Part shown: positions 3,235 through 59,802 of the stretch, in pieces
Layout of the letters: every line of letters starts with the position of its first letter
How positions within the stretch are numbered: the stretch's first letter is position 1
Source of the DNA: Acidobacteriota bacterium
GTDB taxonomy: Bacteria; Acidobacteriota; Vicinamibacteria; Vicinamibacterales; JAMQPK01
Reading direction: 5' to 3'
NCBI GenBank assembly: GCA_031395755.1
Contig: JANNJO010000428.1
Span: forward strand, 1 to 60,490
Length of the DNA stretch: 60,490 nucleotides
Translations under genes and position numbers: made by a program
Notes under the pieces: model-generated
What the model was told of the DNA's origin: nothing
The model's input: the letters and a program-made list of their open reading frames with translations, nothing else
Database searches by the model: none

Positions 3235-4521
3235 ATGAATTCAGCCGATACCGCATGGATGTTGGTCTCCACCGCGCTCGTTCTCCTCATGACCCCGGCG
3301 CTCGCGTTCTTTTATGGCGGCCTCGTCCGCTCAAAGAATGCTCTCAACACGATGATGATGAGCTTTATCTCGCTCGGCTTCATCGGCGTGATGTGGGCCG
3401 TCGTGGGGTACTCGCTCTCGTTCGCCCCCGGCAATAACTACATCGGCGATCTCTCCCGCTTCGCGCTGAAAGGCGTCGGACTCGAGGCGCAGGGCACCAT
3501 TCCGCACTACCTGTTCATGGCCTATCAGGGCACGTTCTGCATCATCACGGCGGCGCTGATCTCGGGCGCCATCGTCGAGCGGATGCGGTTCTCGGCATAC
3601 CTGGCGTTCATCATCCTGTGGGCGCTGGTGGTGTACACGCCGGTGGCGCACTGGGTGTGGGGCGGCGGGTGGCTGGCCGACATGGGCGCGCTCGATTTCG
3701 CCGGCGGAACGGTCGTGCACGTCAACGCCGGCGTGGCGGCGCTGGTGGCGGCCATCGTCATCGGACGACGGAAGGATTATCCGAGCTCGTCGCTGCTGCC
3801 GCACAACGTGCCGTTCACGCTGCTCGGTGCCGGCCTGCTCTGGTTCGGCTGGTTCGGATTCAACGCCGGCAGCGCGCTGAGCGCGAGCCCGATTGCGGGA
3901 CTGGCGTTCGTGACGACGTTCCTCGCCCCGATGGGCACCCTCGTCGTGTGGACACTCCTCGATTACATGCGAGCAGGGAAGCCGACTGCCGTCGGATGCG
4001 CCACGGCCATCGTCGTTGGCCTGGTTGCGGTCACGCCGGCCGCCGGGTTCATCGGCCCGATGAGCGCCATCGCGCTGGGCGCCATCGCGGCGGTGCCGAG
4101 CTATTTCGGTCTGGTGTGGCGCGCGAAGACCTCGCTTGATGATTCGCTCGACGTCGTCGCCGCGCACGGTGTCGGCGGCACCGTGGGCGCGCTGCTCACG
4201 GGCGTGTTCGCCCAGAAGGCGCTCAACGGCATCGCCGACGGCGCGCTCTTCGGCAACCCGGCGCAGCTCGGGATTCAGGCGGCGGCCGTGGGCGCGACCA
4301 TCGTCTACAGCGGCGTCATGAGCTTTGTGCTGCTCAAGCTCATCGCGCTCGTCGTTCCGCTACGCGTCTCGGCGGCCGATGAAGACACCGGGCTCGACCT
4401 CAGCAATCACGGCGAAGAGGCGTACGTGCACGGCGAAAACCTCGGCATGTCCGAAACCGCCGCACCCGCCAAAGTGCCGGCACTGGCGCCGCGCTCTGAG
4501 CTCGCATCACAACGTTCTTAA
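3235..4521 (+). CDS. amtB: ammonium transporter (Amt family)
   Basis: ORF 3052-4521. The Amt-typical N-terminus MNSADTAWMLVSTALVLLMTPALAFFYGGLVR starts at the in-frame ATG 3235. About 11 TM segments. The upstream part of the ORF overlaps the promoter region. Confidence 0.9.
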   Translation: MNSADTAWMLVSTALVLLMTPALAFFYGGLVRSKNALNTMMMSFISLGFIGVMWAVVGYSLSFAPGNNYIGDLSRFALKGVGLEAQGTIPHYLFMAYQGTFCIITAALISGAIVERMRFSAYLAFIILWALVVYTPVAHWVWGGGWLADMGALDFAGGTVVHVNAGVAALVAAIVIGRRKDYPSSSLLPHNVPFTLLGAGLLWFGWFGFNAGSALSASPIAGLAFVTTFLAPMGTLVVWTLLDYMRAGKPTAVGCATAIVVGLVAVTPAAGFIGPMSAIALGAIAAVPSYFGLVWRAKTSLDDSLDVVAAHGVGGTVGALLTGVFAQKALNGIADGALFGNPAQLGIQAAAVGATIVYSGVMSFVLLKLIALVVPLRVSAADEDTGLDLSNHGEEAYVHGENLGMSETAAPAKVPALAPRSELASQRS

Positions 4522-5470: not shown

Positions 5471-8047
5471 ATGTCCGTATGTGTGCCGATGGCGCCTGCT
5501 AAAGGTAAGGACGTCGATCAGGCGGAGCTTCGGCTCCGCCTGTCCGCGTCGCTCGACGAGGCGCGGCGCGAGCTCGTCGGCGCCACCGAGCGCGGCGAAG
5601 GCGGGCGCATGGCGCTGGCGCGCTTTTCGGAGTGCATCGACGGGATCATCCGCGACCTTGTCGACAGCGCGCGCACCCAGACCGCGGCGTCCCTCGCAGT
5701 GTGCGCGGTCGGCGGGTACGGGCGCCGGTCGCAGTTCCTCCACTCCGATATCGACCTGCTCGTCGTCTTCGGCGGCCCGATCGGCCGCCCGGAGGAGCGT
5801 TTCATCAAGGCGCTGCTGCATCCCCTTTGGGATCTGAAGTTCCAGGTCGGGCATCACGTCCGTGAGATAACCGATTTCGATCGGCTGGACACCGGCAACC
5901 CGGAATATCTGCTCTCGCTGATGGACCTGAGGCGGCTGGCCGGCGACCGCGATCTCCTCGATCGTCTGGAGGGGGCGATCAAATCCTCCGCGCCTCAGTG
6001 GCGCCCGCAGATCCTCGACGCGCTCGTGACGCTGACCGACCAGCGGCACAGCGAGTTCCACGAGACCGTGTACCAGCTCGAGCCGGATGTAAAGGACGGC
6101 CCCGGTGCGCTTCGTGACGTGTGGGCGACCCGGATGCTGCTGCGCCTCGGGGGCGATCGGCGGCACGCGCCGCGCCACGCATCGCCGGATCGGTTGAACG
6201 ACGCCGAAGAATTTCTCATGCGCATCCGTTCGGGCCTGCACCTCGACGCCGGGCGCAACGCGAACGTGCTGAGCTATGAGCTGCAGGAGAAGGCGGCCGA
6301 GCGGATGCGTTATGCCGGACCGGACGTGCGCCGGCGGGTGGAAGCGCTGATGACGGACTACTTCAAGGACGCGCGCAGCGTGACGCGCGCGCTCGGCCGT
6401 GTGCGGCGCGTGGCGGTGCCGCCGCCTCCGACCTCGATTCAGCTGATCGGCCAGAACCTGATGTGGGTGGTCGAAGGCATCACCTTCGACGATGCCGCCG
6501 CCGCCGCGGCATCGCCGGCCGAATGGCTCCGCGCGTTCGACGCCGCCGTGTCGCGCAACGTGCCGGTGGGCGACGATGCGCTGGCGATGATGGAGCGGGA
6601 GCAGCAGGTGCACAACCACGCGCCGGAGGTGTTGCACCCGACGGCCGAGCATCGGCAGCGAATCGTGGAGTTTCTGCGGCCGAGGCCGGGCCTGTCGGCG
6701 CGGCTCAGCGAGATGCGCGACTGCGGTCTGCTGGGCGCCATCTTTCCCGAGCTGAACGAAATTTCGTGCCGCGTGACCCGGGATTTCTACCACAAGTACA
6801 CGGTCGACGAGCACACGCTGCTGACGGTTCGCAACGTCGAACGGCTCCTGAGCAATCCGCGGTTCGGCCCCGTGCTGCGCGATCTGCGCGCGCCCGAACT
6901 GCTCGTCCTGTCGCTGCTGTATCACGACGTCGGGAAAGCCCGGGACGGCGATCATTCGATCGTCGGCGCGGAAATGGCCACCGGCATGATGTCGCGGCTG
7001 GGGCTGGACGACGAGGCGCGTCAGACGATCGATTTCCTGATCAGGAACCATCTGAAGATGTCGCGCGTGGCGTTCCGCCGCGATACCGAAGAGCCCGAGG
7101 TGGTGCGGCAGTTCGCCGCCCTGTTCAGTACGGAAGAGCAGCTGAAACTGCTCGTCCTGCTGACGCTGGCAGACGTCGGGGCCGTGAGCCCCGACACCCT
7201 GACGCCCTGGAAGGAAGAGCTGTTGTGGCGGCTCTACGTCGACGCCTACAACCAGATGACGCTGGGGTACGGCGACGACATCATCGATCGCGAGCAGGCG
7301 CTCGTTGCGGCGCTGCAGGCGAGCCGTCCCGCCGACATTTCGGAATCGGAGATGGCGAGCTTCCTCGAGGGGCTGCCGCGGCGCTATCTCATTCTGTTTT
7401 CGCCTGACGCCATCTATCGCCACGTGCGGCTCTCGCGGGACATCCGTCCCGACGAGGCGCATTTCTTTCTCGAAGAGAAAGCCAAGGCGTGGGAGCTGAC
7501 GGTCGTTTCGCTCGACAAGCCGTTCCTGTTCTCGAACATTTGCGGCGTGCTCGCCTACTTCGGGATGGATATTCTCCGCGGTCATGCGCTCACGAGCCTG
7601 GCGGGGACGGTCCTGGATGTCTTCGAGTTCGCCGACTCCGGCGAATTCTTCGAGCGCAACTCGGAAGGGCGGAAGGAGTTCGACCGCCGCCTCCACGAGG
7701 TCGTCAACGGCCAGGCCGACGTCACGACGCTGCTCAGGAGCAAGGAGCGGAGCGTGTTGTTCCGGCGCGCGCTCGTCCGCCGCCAGCCCGTCGTCTACTT
7801 TGACAGCGGCCACTCGCAGCGGTACACCGTGCTCGAGCTCGTGGCGGAGGATGCGCCCGGGTTGCTGTACCGGGTCAGCCGGGTCATCTCGGATCACGGG
7901 ATCGACGTCGATCTCGTGTTGATCTCGACCGAAGGACAGAAAGCCATCGACGTATTTCACATCACTCGCGGCGGGGCGAAGCTTTCGGAAGACGCCGAGG
8001 CGGCGTTGAAAGCGGACCTCGAACGCATGCTGAAGGAGAGCGCATGA
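5471..8047 (+). CDS. glnD: [protein-PII] uridylyltransferase / uridylyl-removing enzyme
   Basis: 858 aa. Nucleotidyltransferase motif GGYGRRSQFLHSDIDLLVVF, an HD domain (LLYHDVGK) and two C-terminal ACT-like regions. The stop overlaps the PII start (ATGA at 8044-8047). Confidence 0.9.
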   Translation: MSVCVPMAPAKGKDVDQAELRLRLSASLDEARRELVGATERGEGGRMALARFSECIDGIIRDLVDSARTQTAASLAVCAVGGYGRRSQFLHSDIDLLVVFGGPIGRPEERFIKALLHPLWDLKFQVGHHVREITDFDRLDTGNPEYLLSLMDLRRLAGDRDLLDRLEGAIKSSAPQWRPQILDALVTLTDQRHSEFHETVYQLEPDVKDGPGALRDVWATRMLLRLGGDRRHAPRHASPDRLNDAEEFLMRIRSGLHLDAGRNANVLSYELQEKAAERMRYAGPDVRRRVEALMTDYFKDARSVTRALGRVRRVAVPPPPTSIQLIGQNLMWVVEGITFDDAAAAAASPAEWLRAFDAAVSRNVPVGDDALAMMEREQQVHNHAPEVLHPTAEHRQRIVEFLRPRPGLSARLSEMRDCGLLGAIFPELNEISCRVTRDFYHKYTVDEHTLLTVRNVERLLSNPRFGPVLRDLRAPELLVLSLLYHDVGKARDGDHSIVGAEMATGMMSRLGLDDEARQTIDFLIRNHLKMSRVAFRRDTEEPEVVRQFAALFSTEEQLKLLVLLTLADVGAVSPDTLTPWKEELLWRLYVDAYNQMTLGYGDDIIDREQALVAALQASRPADISESEMASFLEGLPRRYLILFSPDAIYRHVRLSRDIRPDEAHFFLEEKAKAWELTVVSLDKPFLFSNICGVLAYFGMDILRGHALTSLAGTVLDVFEFADSGEFFERNSEGRKEFDRRLHEVVNGQADVTTLLRSKERSVLFRRALVRRQPVVYFDSGHSQRYTVLELVAEDAPGLLYRVSRVISDHGIDVDLVLISTEGQKAIDVFHITRGGAKLSEDAEAALKADLERMLKESA

Positions 8048-8373
8048 AGCTGATTAAGGCGATCGTCCGTCCCAACATGGTGGACAACATCAAGGAGGCC
8101 CTCGGCAAGATGAACATCGCGGGCATGACCGTCACCGAGGTGCGGGGTCACGGCCGCCAGAAGGGGCACACGGCGGTGTACCGCGGGCGCGAGTACGAAG
8201 TGAGCCTGCTGCCGAAGATGGAGATCGAGGTCGTCGTTCCGGATGGCTCCGTGGACGAAGCCATCAAGGCGATCATCGGCGCGGCGCGAACCGGCGAGAT
8301 CGGCGACGGCCGGGTGTTCGTGATGCCTGTCGAGCAGGGCTACAATATCCGCACCGGCGAGAAGGACGTCTAG
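8044..8373 (+). CDS. glnB: nitrogen regulatory protein P-II
   Basis: 109 aa, MKLIKAIVRP... T-loop GRQKGHTAVYRGREY retains the uridylylatable Tyr51 position. The glnB versus glnK assignment is not resolvable here. Confidence 0.95.
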   Translation: MKLIKAIVRPNMVDNIKEALGKMNIAGMTVTEVRGHGRQKGHTAVYRGREYEVSLLPKMEIEVVVPDGSVDEAIKAIIGAARTGEIGDGRVFVMPVEQGYNIRTGEKDV

Positions 8374-8386
8374 AAGCTCTGGGCGC

Positions 8387-9784
8387 GTGCCGACACCAGC
8401 CGATCTTTTTCTCTCTCCGGATCTCACAGAAGCTCAGGCGCGCGCGTACCTCGAGTCGCTCGGCTTCCGCGATCCGAAAGCGTCAGACGACCACCTGCAG
8501 CGGATGGCCGACGATCCTGTCGTCCGCGAAGCGCTCGGCCGCCTCGCGCAGTTGCTGTTCCCCGCTCTGCTCGAATCGCCCGATCCCGACGCGGCCGTCG
8601 TAGGCCTGTCGCGGTACGTGGCGGCGCGCACCGGCCGCGCCATGTTTCTGGACTACCTGCGCGAGGATCCGCGCGCGCTGCACGTCCTGACGTACGTCAT
8701 GGGCGCCTCGCCGGCGCTCAGCGAAATCCTCATCCGGACTCCCGAGTACTTTCATTGGCTCGTCGCTCAAGTGGAGCGAAGCGCCCCCGATCGCCAGGAT
8801 CACGAGGAAGAGCTCGTCTCGGTGTTCGCGACGGTGGACGATTCCGTCGAGGCGCTCAATATCCTCCGGCGCTGGAAGCGGCGGGAGACGCTGCGCATCG
8901 GCACGCGCGAGCTGCTGCGGCGCGAGACGGTTCAGACCGTGGCCGCCCAGCTCTCGGATATCGCGTGCGTGGCGATCGATTTCGCGCTGGCCATCGTGAC
9001 GCGGCAGCTGCTCGACGCCGAAGGGCGCGACAAGGCGCCCGGCACGTTTGCGGTCATCGCGACCGGGCAGCTCGGGGCGCAGGAATTGAGCTACAGCTCC
9101 AGCGTCGATCTGCTCTATGTCTACGAGGCGGCTGGCGTGGACGGCGCAGACGCCGAGGCCGCGCACGCGTTCTTCGTGAAGGCGGGCTGCGATTTGACGG
9201 CTGCCCTCAGGGACGAGACCCATGAGGGGCACCTGTATCGCGTGGGCGTGCCGCCGTGGCCCCAGGCCGACGGATGGCTCAAGGCGTGCTCTGTCGAGGA
9301 GTATGGCGAGCACTTTGCGGGTTCCGATGATCCCGCCGAAAGAGGCACGCTGACGAGAGCACGCGCGGTTGCCGGCGACGCGGAGCTCGGCCGACGTTTC
9401 ACGGTGAGCAGTCAGACGTTCGTGTTCGGCGGTTCCCATCAGAGCGCCGCCGCCGCGGCTGGTGGGGTCCGGCTTGAGCCGGACCTCACTGACACCGATC
9501 GCGGAGCAGAGGACATCGAGCGCCTGACACAGGCCTTCCAACTACGTTACGGCGCCGCGCACGCGCCGCTTCGCTATGCGGGCACTCTCGCTACGCTCCA
9601 GGCGATGGGCAGAGCGGGGTTGATCGACGAAGCCGTCCGGCGCGAGCTGGATCATGCGTACGTGTTCCTGCGGTCGGCGGAGCACCGCCAGCAGCTCGGC
9701 CTGAAGGAAGATGTCGACAAGCCGCTCGCCGCCTCGCGCGATCGCGTCCGCGAGATCTGCCGGGCGATCGTCGATCGGCCATAG
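8387..9784 (+). CDS. glnE: glutamine-synthetase adenylyltransferase-like protein, single-module (half-length GlnE)
   Basis: 465 aa with GlnE-type N-terminal helices and one nucleotidyltransferase module (ATGQLGAQELSYSSSVDLLYVY). E. coli GlnE is about 946 aa with two modules. Confidence 0.7.
   Translation: MPTPADLFLSPDLTEAQARAYLESLGFRDPKASDDHLQRMADDPVVREALGRLAQLLFPALLESPDPDAAVVGLSRYVAARTGRAMFLDYLREDPRALHVLTYVMGASPALSEILIRTPEYFHWLVAQVERSAPDRQDHEEELVSVFATVDDSVEALNILRRWKRRETLRIGTRELLRRETVQTVAAQLSDIACVAIDFALAIVTRQLLDAEGRDKAPGTFAVIATGQLGAQELSYSSSVDLLYVYEAAGVDGADAEAAHAFFVKAGCDLTAALRDETHEGHLYRVGVPPWPQADGWLKACSVEEYGEHFAGSDDPAERGTLTRARAVAGDAELGRRFTVSSQTFVFGGSHQSAAAAAGGVRLEPDLTDTDRGAEDIERLTQAFQLRYGAAHAPLRYAGTLATLQAMGRAGLIDEAVRRELDHAYVFLRSAEHRQQLGLKEDVDKPLAASRDRVREICRAIVDRP
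9461..9485 (+). repeat. REP-like hairpin copy inside the glnE-like CDS
   Basis: GGTGGGGTCCGGCTTGAGCCGGACC. The stem is GGTCCGGC/GCCGGACC. Translated in frame as GGVRLEPDL. Confidence 0.85.
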
Positions 9785-9822
9785 TCGATCGTCCCGACCG
9801 CAGCAGGGACCGGACTGTTTCT

Positions 9823-9896
9823 GATGGCGGGACGGTCCCGATGGCGGGACGGATCCCGATGGTGGAACGGATCCCGATGGTGGGACGGATCCCGAT
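9823..9896. repeat. 18-bp tandem repeat (minisatellite), 4 full units plus a partial one
   Basis: Units GATGGCGGGACGG(A)TCCC at 9823, 9840, 9858 and 9876. The fifth unit (9894) runs into the REP hairpin. Intergenic. Confidence 0.9.
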
Positions 9897-9921
9897 GGTG
9901 GGGTCCGGCTTTAGCCGGACC
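9897..9921 (+). repeat. REP-like hairpin, intergenic copy
   Basis: GGTGGGGTCCGGCTTTAGCCGGACC, differing from the 9461 copy only in one loop base. Confidence 0.9.
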
Positions 9922-9924
9922 GCC

Positions 9925-10192
9925 GCGGATGAGCCTGACACGCGATCCTGGCGTGATTCTTGTTCACGTCGGATGCGTGACCGCGCATCCAGAGCGCCTC
10001 GAATCCTTTGACTAGTTTGCAATTCTTGCGTACTGTTTCATGCCGGACCACGTGCACGTCATTGTGCGAGGCGGCAGTGAGACGGCAAACCTCAAAACGT
10101 TTGCGTCGAAAGCAAAACAGTGCAGTGGGTACGCCTACGCACAGCAAAACGACAAAAAGCCGAACCCCACAGATTTCCTACCCCAGCAATGA
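9925..10192 (+). pseudogene. decayed RAYT / IS200-like (HUH Y1) transposase remnant
   Basis: One frame reads ...VILVHVGCVTAHPERLESFD*FAILAYCFMPDHVHVIVRGGSETANLKTFASKAKQCSGYAYAQ..., with an in-frame TAG at 10013-10015. The HUH motif (HVH) is in its typical hydrophobic context. The C-terminal catalytic Tyr region is missing, and the remnant ends overlapping the PfkB gene. Confidence 0.5.
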
Positions 10193-15511: not shown

Positions 15512-15666
15512 ACAGTCGGCAGTCGACAGTCGACAGTGATCAGTCTGAGTCGCCAGTCATCGCCTCAGTCGGGCAGTCGTGCCTCGCGACTCCGGACTGA
15601 GGCTTGTCGGACTGGGACTCTCGACTGCTGACTGGGACTGATGACCGACGACTGCCGACTAACGAC
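15512..15666. repeat. palindromic heptamer-word element (family 1, AGTCGNN / NNCGACT), locus A
   Basis: Fills the whole gap between the TGA at 15507-15509 and the convergent TAA at 15667-15669. The left half is built of CAGTC words and the right half of GACTG words. Perfect inverted repeats are 15514-15525/15649-15660 (12 bp) and 15563-15570/15595-15602 (8 bp). Confidence 0.9.
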
Positions 15667-32275: not shown

Positions 32276-33352
32276 ATGAAAACGATGAGAGCGGTTGGTC
32301 TTTACAAATATCTTCCTGTCGAAGATCCGGAAAGTCTGCTCGACCTCGACATTCCCAAGCCTGAAGCCGCGGGGCGAGACCTGCTGGTGCGCGTGCGCGC
32401 GGTGTCGGTGAATCCGGTCGATACCAAAGTGCGTGCGCCGAAAGATAAAGTCGAAGCAGCGCCGCGCATCCTCGGTTGGGACGCCGCGGGCACAGTCGAG
32501 GCCGCCGGCGATCAGGTGACGCTGTTTCAACCCGGTGATGAGGTGTATTACGCCGGAAGCATCACCCGGCCTGGGTCGAACAGCGAGTATCACCTCGTCG
32601 ATGAACGCATCGCCGGGCGTAAGCCGCGCAATCTGTCGTTCGAGGACGCAGCGGCGATGCCGCTGACGACGATCACGGCGTACGAAGCGCTTTTCGATCG
32701 CATGGGCGTGGTCCGGCTAAAGCCGGACGCCACCAAGCAGGCAGCCAAGGAGCAGGTGGGGTCTGCCTTCAGGCGGACCGACGCGTCCATCCTGATCATC
32801 GGCGGGGCAGGTGGCGTGGGCTCCATCGCGATTCAGCTCGCGAAGAAGCTGGCCGGGCTGCGGGTCATCGCAACCGCGTCACGCAAGGAAAGCGGCGAGT
32901 GGTGCCGGTCTCTGGGCGCCGACGACATCATCAACCATCATCATGCGTTTCAGGAGGAGTTCAAGATGGCCGGCCTGCCCGAGGTCGACTACATCCTGTG
33001 CCTCAACAGCACTGAGAAGCACATCCAGAACATGGCTGACGTCATCAAGCCGCAAGGCAGGCTCTGCGCCATCGTCGAGACCAAAGGGGGTGTGCCGGTC
33101 AACATCAACCCGTTTCAGCGGAAGAGCGTCGCATTCTGCTGGGAGCTGATGTTTACGCGCTCGATATTCCAGACCCCCGACATGCAGGCGCAGCACGACC
33201 TGCTCAACGAAACGGCGGGCCTGTTCGAGAACGGCACGCTGCGCACAACCAGGACGACGGGCTTTGGAGAAATGAACGCGGAAAATCTCAGGAAGGCCCA
33301 CGCCGAGATCGAGCGCGGCGACATGATTGGGAAGCTCACGCTCAGCAACTAA
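32276..33352 (+). CDS. zinc-type alcohol dehydrogenase / quinone oxidoreductase family protein
   Basis: The C-terminal 358 aa of ORF 31550-33352, starting at the in-frame ATG 32276 (MKTMRAVG...). MDR pattern ILGWDAAGTV, PGDEVYYAG, and Rossmann motif IIGGAGGVGS. Confidence 0.9.
   Translation: MKTMRAVGLYKYLPVEDPESLLDLDIPKPEAAGRDLLVRVRAVSVNPVDTKVRAPKDKVEAAPRILGWDAAGTVEAAGDQVTLFQPGDEVYYAGSITRPGSNSEYHLVDERIAGRKPRNLSFEDAAAMPLTTITAYEALFDRMGVVRLKPDATKQAAKEQVGSAFRRTDASILIIGGAGGVGSIAIQLAKKLAGLRVIATASRKESGEWCRSLGADDIINHHHAFQEEFKMAGLPEVDYILCLNSTEKHIQNMADVIKPQGRLCAIVETKGGVPVNINPFQRKSVAFCWELMFTRSIFQTPDMQAQHDLLNETAGLFENGTLRTTRTTGFGEMNAENLRKAHAEIERGDMIGKLTLSN
32710..32734 (-). repeat. REP-like hairpin, reverse orientation, inside the ADH CDS
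   Basis: GGTCCGGCTAAAGCCGGACGCCACC is the reverse complement of the REP consensus with one substitution. Translated as VVRLKPDAT. Confidence 0.85.
32755..32779 (+). repeat. REP-like hairpin variant inside the ADH CDS
   Basis: GGTGGGGTCTGCCTTCAGGCGGACC. The stem GGTCTGCC/GGCGGACC keeps its pairing through a compensatory G/C swap plus one G:T wobble. Confidence 0.8.
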
Positions 33353-35423: not shown

Positions 35424-35458
35424 TGACTGACGACCGACGACTGCCGACCGACGACTGT
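35424..35458. repeat. family-1 heptamer array (five units), locus C
   Basis: TGACTGA CGACCGA CGACTGC CGACCGA CGACTGT lies between the TGA at 35417-35419 and the convergent stop at 35460-35462. The 17-nt block 35432-35448 is identical to 15643-15659. Confidence 0.9.
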
Positions 35459-42853: not shown

Positions 42854-43516
42854 GTGAAATTGGCGATCAAACGCAAACAACTCAGCGACCAGGTCTCCGA
42901 GCTCACGACCAATCGCCTCTCGGTGTACCTCCGATGCCTCAACTCTCTGGATGCGGCAGGAGTGAAGACCGTGTCGTCGCAGTCGCTGGCGCACCAGTTC
43001 CACCTGAACGCGGCGCAGATTCGGAAGGACCTGGCGAATTTCGGCGAGTTCGGCGTCCGCGGGGTCGGCTACTACGTCAAGGATCTGCAGCAGCATCTTC
43101 GGCAGATCCTGGGACTCGAGCGACGGCTGAAGGTCGCGATACTCGGCGCGGGGAACCTCGGCCTCGCCCTCGCGGACTATCCGGGCTTCCGTCAGGAAGG
43201 ATTCCAGATGGTCGCGTTATTCGACGCGCTCTCGTCGAAGGTCGGGCAGCGTTCGCGGGCGGGCGTGCCGATCTTCGACATCAAGGATCTCCGGAAGATC
43301 GCGGCGCGCGAGAAAATCGCCATCGCCGTCATTGCTGTCCCCGCCGACTCGGCCCAGCACGTCGTCAATCAGGTGGTCGCCGCCGGCATCAAAGCGATCC
43401 TGAACTTTTCACCAGGAACGCTGCGAGCCCCCGACGATGTGAAATTGAAGAGCGTCGATCTGACCGTCTCGCTCGAAAGCTTGTCGTTCTACCTTGCGCA
43501 GGAAGAGGAAGAGTAG
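42854..43516 (+). CDS. rex: redox-sensing transcriptional repressor Rex
   Basis: 220 aa. Winged-helix N-terminus (RLSVYLRCL...SSQSLA) and a Rossmann NADH-binding motif (VAILGAGNLG). Confidence 0.9.
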   Translation: MKLAIKRKQLSDQVSELTTNRLSVYLRCLNSLDAAGVKTVSSQSLAHQFHLNAAQIRKDLANFGEFGVRGVGYYVKDLQQHLRQILGLERRLKVAILGAGNLGLALADYPGFRQEGFQMVALFDALSSKVGQRSRAGVPIFDIKDLRKIAAREKIAIAVIAVPADSAQHVVNQVVAAGIKAILNFSPGTLRAPDDVKLKSVDLTVSLESLSFYLAQEEEE

Positions 43517-43555
43517 GGATTAGGGATTGGGGATTAGGGATTAGGGATTAGATTA
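43514..43555 (+). repeat. TAGGGAT heptamer array (family 3, telomere-like, G-tract rich), locus F left arm
   Basis: TAGGGAT TAGGGAT TGGGGAT TAGGGAT TAGGGAT TAGATTA. It begins with the rex TAG stop and ends at the ATG of ORF 43555. Confidence 0.9.
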
Positions 43556-44136: not shown

Positions 44137-44221
44137 GTACCGACGGAGACTCTCGACTGCTGACTGGGACTACTGACTGCTGACTGAGACTGACGACTAA
44201 CGACTGCTGACTGACGACTCC
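44093..44221. repeat. family-1 heptamer-word element with 22-bp terminal inverted repeats (MITE-like), locus D
   Basis: GGAGTCGGCAGTCGGCAGTCGT (44093-44114) matches the reverse complement of 44200-44221 (GGAGTCGTCAGTCAGCAGTCGT) at 20/22. The 24-nt block 44148-44171 is identical to 15616-15639. Confidence 0.85.
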
Positions 44222-58475: not shown

Positions 58476-59753
<1,278 letters not shown>

Positions 59754-59759
<6 letters not shown>

Positions 59760-59802
59760 CAGTCGTCAGTCATCAGTCGTCAGTCGTCAGTCGTCAGTCG
59801 CA
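59754..59802. repeat. family-1 heptamer array, seven units AGTC(A/G)TC, locus E
   Basis: AGTCATC AGTCGTC AGTCATC AGTCGTC AGTCGTC AGTCGTC AGTCGCA. It contains the gltA start codon (59757-59759) and the yacG stop (59787-59789). Confidence 0.95.

Follow-up and report, generated by a model that had tools for sequence, protein, structure and literature searches.

The window analysed here is a 60,490-nt stretch of DNA from a member of the Acidobacteriota (Vicinamibacterales), and it contains four copies of a short hairpin, distributed between a locus of glnD-like, PII and GlnE-like genes and an alcohol dehydrogenase (ADH) gene. One copy lies inside the GlnE-like coding sequence and a second in the 394-nt gap between the GlnE-like gene and a convergent gene for a PfkB kinase, where it is preceded by an 18-nt tandem array and followed, from about position 9968, by a fragment of a RAYT transposase gene. 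The remaining two copies form an inverted pair within the ADH gene. The features are listed below in window coordinates, with the hairpins labelled as REPs and the inverted pair as a REPIN.

5471-8047: glnD-like gene
8044-8373: PII gene
8387-9784: GlnE-like gene, 465 aa, with PF03710 and a weak match to PF08335
9461-9485, plus strand: REP copy 1, head GTGG, stem GGTCCGGC/GCCGGACC, loop TTGA; in frame in the GlnE-like coding sequence
9823-9902, plus strand: 18-nt tandem array, 4.5 units of GATGGTGGGACGGATCCC (TRF: period 18, 93% matches)
9897-9921, plus strand: REP copy 2, loop TTTA; intergenic, same strand as the RAYT remnant and 5' of it
9968-10159, plus strand: RAYT (TnpA_REP, HUH-Y1) pseudogene fragment, matching residues ~37-102 of intact RAYTs of ~170 aa
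10178-11068: PfkB kinase gene, on the strand opposite to the GlnE-like gene
32285 (start in the public record) to 33352 (end of the stop codon): zinc-type alcohol dehydrogenase/quinone reductase gene, nearest structures 4dvj and 3fbg
32710-32734, minus strand: REP copy 3, head GTGG, first stem base C; left unit of the dimer, encodes VVRLKPDAT
32755-32779, plus strand: REP copy 4, stem GGTCTGCC/GGCGGACC; right-hand unit of the dimer, read in another frame as VGSAFRRT
32710-32779, no strand assigned: REPIN of two inverted REPs with their heads towards a 20-nt spacer; in frame in the ADH gene

A search of the window for the motif GGTGGGGTCCGGCTT[T/G]AGCCGGACC, allowing up to three mismatches, returned the copies at 9461(+), 9897(+) and 32710(-, one mismatch); written as a single 25-mer the motif is GGTGGGGTCCGGCTTKAGCCGGACC. 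The copy at 32755-32779(+) reads GGTGGGGTCTGCCTTCAGGCGGACC and has four changes relative to the 25-mer, which places it outside a three-mismatch search, and it was read directly. These changes are one loop base, a C to T change at stem position 5 that gives a T:G wobble, and a G to C change at stem position 7 together with a C to G change on the partner arm, which make up a compensatory pair. There was no match to the 25-mer pattern in 100 dinucleotide-preserving shuffles, and a chance origin of the hairpin copies is excluded. As single-stranded DNA each copy forms a stem of 7-8 bp and a loop of 4 nt, with energies of -6.7 to -9.9 kcal/mol and z scores of -3.3 to -5.6. All four have in common a 5-base 5' tail, GGTGG, and therefore carry the tetranucleotide GTGG, a GTAG-like head of the sort that marks one side of a REP hairpin. 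Copies 3 and 4 are inverted with respect to each other and fold as one long hairpin (a 91-nt region at -25.6 kcal/mol, z -3.7), so that they constitute a REPIN-type dimer.

The preliminary description of this DNA had given the four copies at these positions and orientations, had placed the first in the GlnE-like coding sequence, the second between genes and the others in the ADH gene, and had drawn attention to the compensated and wobble pairs of the 32755 copy. The pattern search and direct reading of the sequence bear this out, and translation of the coding sequences returns the frames and peptides that had been quoted for the intragenic copies. Three of the four copies are thus intragenic and one intergenic, which is atypical for an element named “extragenic”, in what is a small sample of four copies in 60 kb.

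To see whether the hairpin recurs elsewhere we searched one genome per GTDB species for the bare 20-nt hairpin GGTCCGGCTTNAGCCGGACC, a pattern that leaves out the 5' tail. The exact hairpin is present in at least 118 loci, the great majority of which belong to Vicinamibacterales, Vicinamibacteria or unclassified Acidobacteriota metagenome-assembled genomes (MAGs), and one related MAG (CAVYRS01) carries at least 29 exact copies, so further copies, for which the preliminary description had proposed a search, do exist in other genomes. None of the loci has DNA nearly identical to that of the window, the best match being 76% over 1.2 kb, and the nearest relatives are annotated as Vicinamibacterales. 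Of 145 exact hairpins listed for genome loci, most have GTGG or GTAG directly upstream, on one side only. When all perfect hairpins with an 8-bp stem and a 4-nt loop in 970 kb of loci are taken together, the heads GTGG (121) and GTAG (42) far outnumber any other. The family unit is a GTGG/GTAG 5' head, a GC-rich stem of 7-8 bp and a TTYA loop. Its second commonest stem is GGTCCGCC/GGCGGACC, of which the stem of copy 4 is a one-base variant (C to T at position 5).

The same hairpin with a GTGAG head is found beside an intact RAYT gene in a bin labelled Cyanobacteriota (JAIEMQ01; loci L016, L035, L048 and L081), which is either a mis-binned set of contigs or a sign that the family extends beyond the Acidobacteriota. 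A few single matches to the hairpin in Bifidobacterium and proteobacterial genomes are without the head and may be due to chance.

Whether the stem is conserved as a pairing or as a sequence was examined on sites picked by the head GT[AG]G and the loop TTYA only, with both arms left free, which avoids circularity. Once the sites with the canonical left arm had been dropped 146 remained, of which 44 have all eight pairs and 33 have seven of the eight, while in a reversed-motif control none of 34 sites has six or more pairs. A second selection used the head, the loop and a left arm one or two changes from the canonical one, ignoring the right arm; here 47 left-arm substitutions at stem positions 2-8 have a matching Watson-Crick change in the right arm and 7 are broken. 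Since pairing is mostly absent at stem position 1, the stem in effect comprises 7 bp. Among 46 distinct sequences changes on both sides are seen in six of the eight pairs, and the covariation score is 0.230, compared with 0.099 ± 0.013 in shuffles (none of 500 reaches the observed value); with the partner slid the score does not exceed 0.059. G:T wobbles are also present in stems of the family. The conserved feature of the hairpin is its pairing and not its sequence, as expected of a REP, and the covariation suspected from the single compensated pair at 32755 is real across the family.

The transposase fragment downstream of copy 2 aligns with residues 53-102 of a 170-aa relative at 44% identity and with residues 37-100 of another. 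It has an in-frame TAG at 10013-10015 and an HUH motif (HVH) at 10049-10057, in the context MPDHVHVIV, and it lacks the N-terminal ~36 aa and the whole WQ...YIxNNP half, which holds the catalytic tyrosine. With a stop codon and no catalytic tyrosine the RAYT gene of the window is a pseudogene, and the locus a dead REPtron. The fragment matches Pfam Y1_Tnp with E=4.7e-4, below the gathering score, and scores 28.7 bits on the NCBIfam model NF047646 (REP_Tyr_transpos), which has a cutoff of 80, so that by this model it does not qualify as a RAYT by itself; both matches, sub-cutoff as they are, agree with the earlier description of an HUH, RAYT-like remnant beside the intergenic copy. The 60-kb window contains no intact RAYT, and a protein search with the 83-aa remnant gave three matches only, two of them also truncated or frameshifted RAYTs. 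What is left of the transposase reading frame is a 50-aa ORF at 10040-10192, whose last 15 nt (10178-10192) also belong to the 3' end of the convergent PfkB gene. The public record lists this ORF as a protein (P0001); it should be listed there as a transposase pseudogene.

Intact relatives were found by tblastn in loci that had been gathered for the hairpin alone. A Vicinamibacterales MAG (L026) encodes a RAYT of 170 aa that scores 96.7 bits on NF047646 (equivalog cutoff 80), and L016 encodes one of 167 aa that scores 86 bits against the same cutoff. The signature DHVH...WQ...YI[IL]NNP is present in both, as is a similarity to E. coli TnpA_REP (4er8, E=2.4e-5), and the L026 gene has hairpins of the family and 19-nt half-unit arrays on both sides. 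A metagenome scan seeded only with the L026 and L016 proteins gave at least 595 contigs that encode this RAYT family. For the analysis of flanks we took the best 80 of these (47-60% identity), which come from soil metagenomes, are listed largely under JGI metagenome accessions and were chosen by protein alone.

In 77 of these 80 contigs a GT[AG]G-headed 7-bp hairpin lies within 400 nt of the RAYT gene, which is the arrangement of a REPtron. The flanks hold 283 such hairpins, with the loop TTCA in 138 and TTTA in 116, and with the stem GTCCGGC in 139 and GTCCGCC in 56; the remaining stems include several fully compensated variants. Hairpins upstream of the gene are on the gene strand in 111 cases versus 26, those downstream are on the opposite strand in 117 cases versus 23, and the heads therefore point outward. 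The nearest upstream hairpins begin 51-72 nt before the RAYT gene. Of a complete REPtron the window keeps the upstream REP and a gene fragment only, with copy 2 on the RAYT strand as upstream REPs of the family mostly are; it is the upstream half of exactly this layout, which supports a REP/RAYT reading of the locus. The preliminary description had compared the arrangement with proteobacterial REPtrons. The REP/RAYT arrangement stands and an intact gene flanked by the hairpins has now been seen in L026, in L016 and in the metagenome contigs, but the layout is not specifically proteobacterial.

The 18-nt array at 9823-9902 runs into copy 2, and the two have the 5' flank and head in common (CCCGATGGTGGG), while the arm has diverged. 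Arrays of half-REPs, consisting of a short flank, the GT[A/G]G head and the 5' arm only and repeated with a period of 16-21 nt, are present in at least 14 other loci and always lie 5' of a full REP. They include L026 (4660-4720 and 5392-5470) and L127 (6130-6180), and further arrays occur in L109, L134, L148, L149, L166, L178 and L206. The array of the window is the analogue of these. Half-REP arrays could be the product of hairpin slippage or scars left by RAYT cleavage and rejoining, and in the latter case they would be a sequence-level record of REP processing in vivo. We did not find half-unit arrays described in the REP catalogue paper (PMC3733652), and they are the only feature of the system for which we came across no earlier description.

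Copy 1 encodes GGVRLEPDL at residues 359-367 of the GlnE-like protein, in the linker between PF03710 and PF08335. Across 120 GlnE-like homologues the stretch of this linker from FV[FY]G to IE.LTQ is hypervariable in both length and sequence, and GGVRLEPD is confined to the window protein and its three closest relatives (80-85% amino acid identity). At the DNA level the 25-mer of copy 1 is 100% identical in the orthologues L125/L126 and L127 and absent from the other listed homologues; the GlnE-like gene as a whole is 85-86% identical to these copy-1-bearing relatives, with an identity of 74-75% at third codon positions. In L127 a tandem half-unit is also in frame just upstream of the GlnE REP. 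In other lineages the GlnE linker contains the repeat-like peptides LRSPLDFARGDPEHVEG, SRVEG and SGVEGP, the last of these twice (P0177, P0185, P0153, P0145), and comparison of these sequences suggests that other palindromic repeat families may insert at the same tolerant spot. Short tandem repeats of the CGATCGT type straddle the stop codon of the GlnE-like gene (window 9765-9793), and a GGCGATCGGCAATAG repeat is found at the equivalent place in L209 (~4395-4445).

Copy 2 also has counterparts in relatives. The same REP is found at the orthologous intergenic site in L127, with 27 nt identical, and the orthologous glnE-PfkB spacer of L209 has a REP with a degenerate head (GGAG). In both spacers (L127 6543-6660, L209 ~4480-4510) the REP is present and the RAYT fragment is absent, which indicates that at this locus the repeats have outlived the transposase gene. 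The L127 spacer additionally contains a REPIN of a sister subfamily (GTAG TGTCCGGCCTTAGCCGGAC).

The REPIN of the ADH gene lengthens, by about 15-17 residues, a loop that immediately precedes the GGAGGVG Rossmann strand. In comparison with the structures 4dvj and 3fbg the window protein is longer here by about 15-16 residues, which lie at VVRLKPDATKQAAKEQVGSAFRRTD. Among 32 close ADH homologues, those with a length of 339 aa (78-88% identity) have a loop of 9-11 residues with no insert, and the DNA of L122 provides the empty site. P0005, an ADH with 90% identity, has the same dimer as the window. The dimer is also present in the ADH gene of L121, with a spacer of 23 nt that differs from the 20-nt spacer of the window in sequence as well as in length. 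Between the window and L121 50 of 51 bases in the REP arms are identical, compared with a third-codon identity of 72% for the ADH gene. A separate clade of 13 ADH proteins (70-76% identical to that of the window) carries a diverged derivative, ...L.PD.TGE...SAFRRTSG. Four further homologues (P0006 and P0008-P0010) have unrelated loops of 15-19 residues, which might be fully decayed inserts.

The two insert-bearing ADH groups are apart in a neighbour-joining tree built with the loop masked, which implies that the insert was gained twice at this loop, or was gained once and then lost several times. The loop has probably been hit twice independently. Within the older clade the state of the hairpins varies with lineage, from intact through nicked to largely decayed. 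Such uneven decay gives no support for long-term selection on intragenic hairpins, and in these older proteins the segment is by now evolving as protein or as neutral sequence. An AlphaFold2 model of the window ADH has a mean pLDDT of 85.5, and the sole segment below 50 is residues 148-163, which are inside the insert; a helix that ends at residue 139 precedes them and the first Rossmann strand follows. The insert-bearing loop is therefore predicted by the model to be disordered.

The ADH and GlnE copies thus have the properties listed for palindromic elements of the Rickettsia RPE type: they are in frame, introduce no stop codon or frameshift, are missing from homologues and occupy tolerant surface sites. 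The intragenic copies are in-frame insertions at sites where extra residues are tolerated, and are most simply read as passengers that now appear in the proteins as loop residues. That the younger copies are better conserved than synonymous sites would allow for a constraint at the nucleic acid level or for homogenisation, but a lasting constraint of that kind is argued against by the decay of the hairpins in the older ADH clade.

Taken together, we consider that the 25-mers belong to a REP family of Vicinamibacterales-type Acidobacteriota that is tagged with GT[A/G]G and includes REPIN dimers, and that they are non-autonomous elements handled in trans by a RAYT, a reading to which we assign a probability of roughly 0.88. 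By analogy with E. coli TnpA_REP and the IS200/IS605 transposases the RAYT would bind the folded hairpin on single-stranded DNA, would read the 5' tetranucleotide and cleave and rejoin there, and in doing so may spread or maintain copies of the REP. The RAYT of the window is dead, so that activity in this genome would require a further copy elsewhere in it; otherwise the family is now inert there.

Two more far-reaching readings would take the half-unit arrays as natural scars of RAYT cleavage and rejoining, and the REPINs of the ADH loop as the result of targeted insertion and maintenance at the nucleic acid level instead of mere tolerance. The second draws on the inserts in two clades and on REP arms that, in the younger clade, are far better conserved than synonymous sites. 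We regard these readings as speculative and rather unlikely.

One alternative to a RAYT-dependent repeat is that the hairpins are structural signals of the host, acting in RNA or DNA and spread by selection without being mobile, with the transposase fragment a coincidence. Copy 2 lies between convergent genes just 3' of a coding sequence, which PMC3733652 gives as the usual location of REPs, and the same source states that REPs are thought to act as RNA elements; in addition REPs have been kept at this intergenic place in three relatives, L127 and L209 among them, and the stems contain G:T wobbles. No copy is followed by a T-run, however, and an intrinsic terminator was rejected on that ground; the terminator and promoter scan gave nothing at the hairpins and only an unrelated terminator site at 9939-9955. 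An Rfam search of the locus returned only a sub-threshold hit to ATPC (E=0.089), which we take as chance. Three of the four copies are inside coding sequences, in two frames and both orientations, and a pure RNA-signal model leaves unexplained both the asymmetric GT[AG]G head and the outward layout at 77 of 80 RAYT genes. We therefore judge it improbable as a full account, and the hairpins may have a secondary role in RNA on top of their dependence on a RAYT. It is less probable still that the window contains a broken insertion sequence of the autonomous IS200/IS605 type, with the repeats as its subterminal hairpins (LE/RE). The fragment does match the Pfam family Y1_Tnp, “Transposase IS200 like”, and the ends of such insertion sequences are also hairpins with a guide tetranucleotide (PMC6006769), yet the L026 and L016 proteins pass the REP transposase model NF047646 (96.7 and 86 against 80) and fail NF033573 (22.5 and 31.1 against 55). 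No ORF of tnpB size lies beside the RAYT genes of L026 or L016, and the hairpins occur singly, as dimers or in arrays far from transposase genes, and also inside genes.

A third possibility is that the motif is driven by protein sequence, the peptides VRL[KE]PD and GSAFRRT being needed by both enzymes and the likeness in DNA a by-product. In its favour, the large ADH clade keeps ...L.PD.TGE...SAFRRTSG... while its DNA hairpins decay. Against this, the same 25-mer is intergenic at 9897, the coding copies are read in two frames and in both orientations, and third codon positions within the REP arms show much higher conservation than the gene does on average. The segment is moreover the only low-confidence region of the ADH model, and ADH orthologues at 78-88% identity do without the motif. 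The preliminary description had held that the hairpin and not any encoded peptide is conserved, a view that would fall if orthologues free of the element encoded the same peptides. Orthologues without the motif exist for both the GlnE-like protein and the ADH, and the claim stands; we attach almost no weight to the protein-driven explanation.

The RAYT-associated repeat that we favour belongs to a kind of element that is already known. GTAG-tagged REPs were catalogued across prokaryotes in 2013 by Di Nocera, De Gregorio and Rocco (PMC3733652), and that catalogue describes a superfamily, including the E. coli REP/BIME, with GT[A/G]G at the foot of the hairpin and GC-rich stems of 6-9 bp, occurring as singletons, dimers and clusters, located between convergent genes and associated with RAYT genes flanked by repeats, all of which is shared by the present family. 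The GTGG form of the head is found there in most GTAG-20 units of Opitutus terrae. Intragenic REPs are also reported there, more than half of them as dimers or grouped repeats that encode 20-30 aa. In the text of the catalogue consulted here Acidobacteria appear only for TIR-flanked transposases, and neither the stem-loop GGTCCG[G/C]C TTYA G[C/G]CGGACC nor a Vicinamibacterales host is included. Our literature search found no paper with the hairpin sequence or its peptides.

With the REPIN-RAYT systems of Pseudomonas and Enterobacteria (Bertels and Rainey 2011, PMC3116915; Bertels et al. 2017, PMC5581495) the present family shares the inverted REP doublet that forms a long hairpin, a dedicated RAYT family and the persistence of REPs at orthologous places in relatives. 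It differs in that the copy in the window is a pseudogene and in the signature of its RAYT, DHVH/WQ/YI[IL]NNP. Judged by motifs alone, the closest counterparts of this signature appear to be subclasses 2.4/2.7 in the scheme of Quentin et al. 2018 (PMC6006769) and not the proteobacterial groups 2/3. Rickettsia RPE and the intragenic REPs of Opitutus terrae resemble the ADH and GlnE copies as in-frame palindromes translated as loop residues, with dimers of ~20-30 aa, but they represent another repeat family in other hosts, and the genes that PMC3733652 emphasises are DNA-repair genes instead of an ADH loop and a GlnE-like linker. IS200/IS605 elements have in common with this system an HUH-Y1 enzyme, which in their case recognises subterminal single-stranded hairpins with a 5' guide tetranucleotide; in contrast, the hairpins described here are dispersed without a gene, the protein passes the REP transposase model and there is no TnpB.

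The new elements are the particular REP family, the clade of its hosts, how abundant it is in metagenomes, and two in-frame insertions that are well resolved. They document a REP/REPIN-RAYT system in a major and poorly studied soil phylum and provide clean pairs of filled and empty sites for in-frame REPIN insertions in conserved enzymes, and none of them overturns the current understanding of REPs. They also explain the recurrence of the odd peptides GSGFSRT, VRLKPD and SAFRRT in predicted proteins of these organisms, and the extra residues of the ADH and GlnE proteins should be annotated as repeat-derived.

The window contains a second dispersed repeat, made up of tandem heptamers of the GACTGAC/TCAGTCG kind with up to 8.7 units, at 15512-15558, 35425-35457, 44142-44219 and 59752-59800. 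A TAGGGAT array of 5.4 units lies at 43514-43551.
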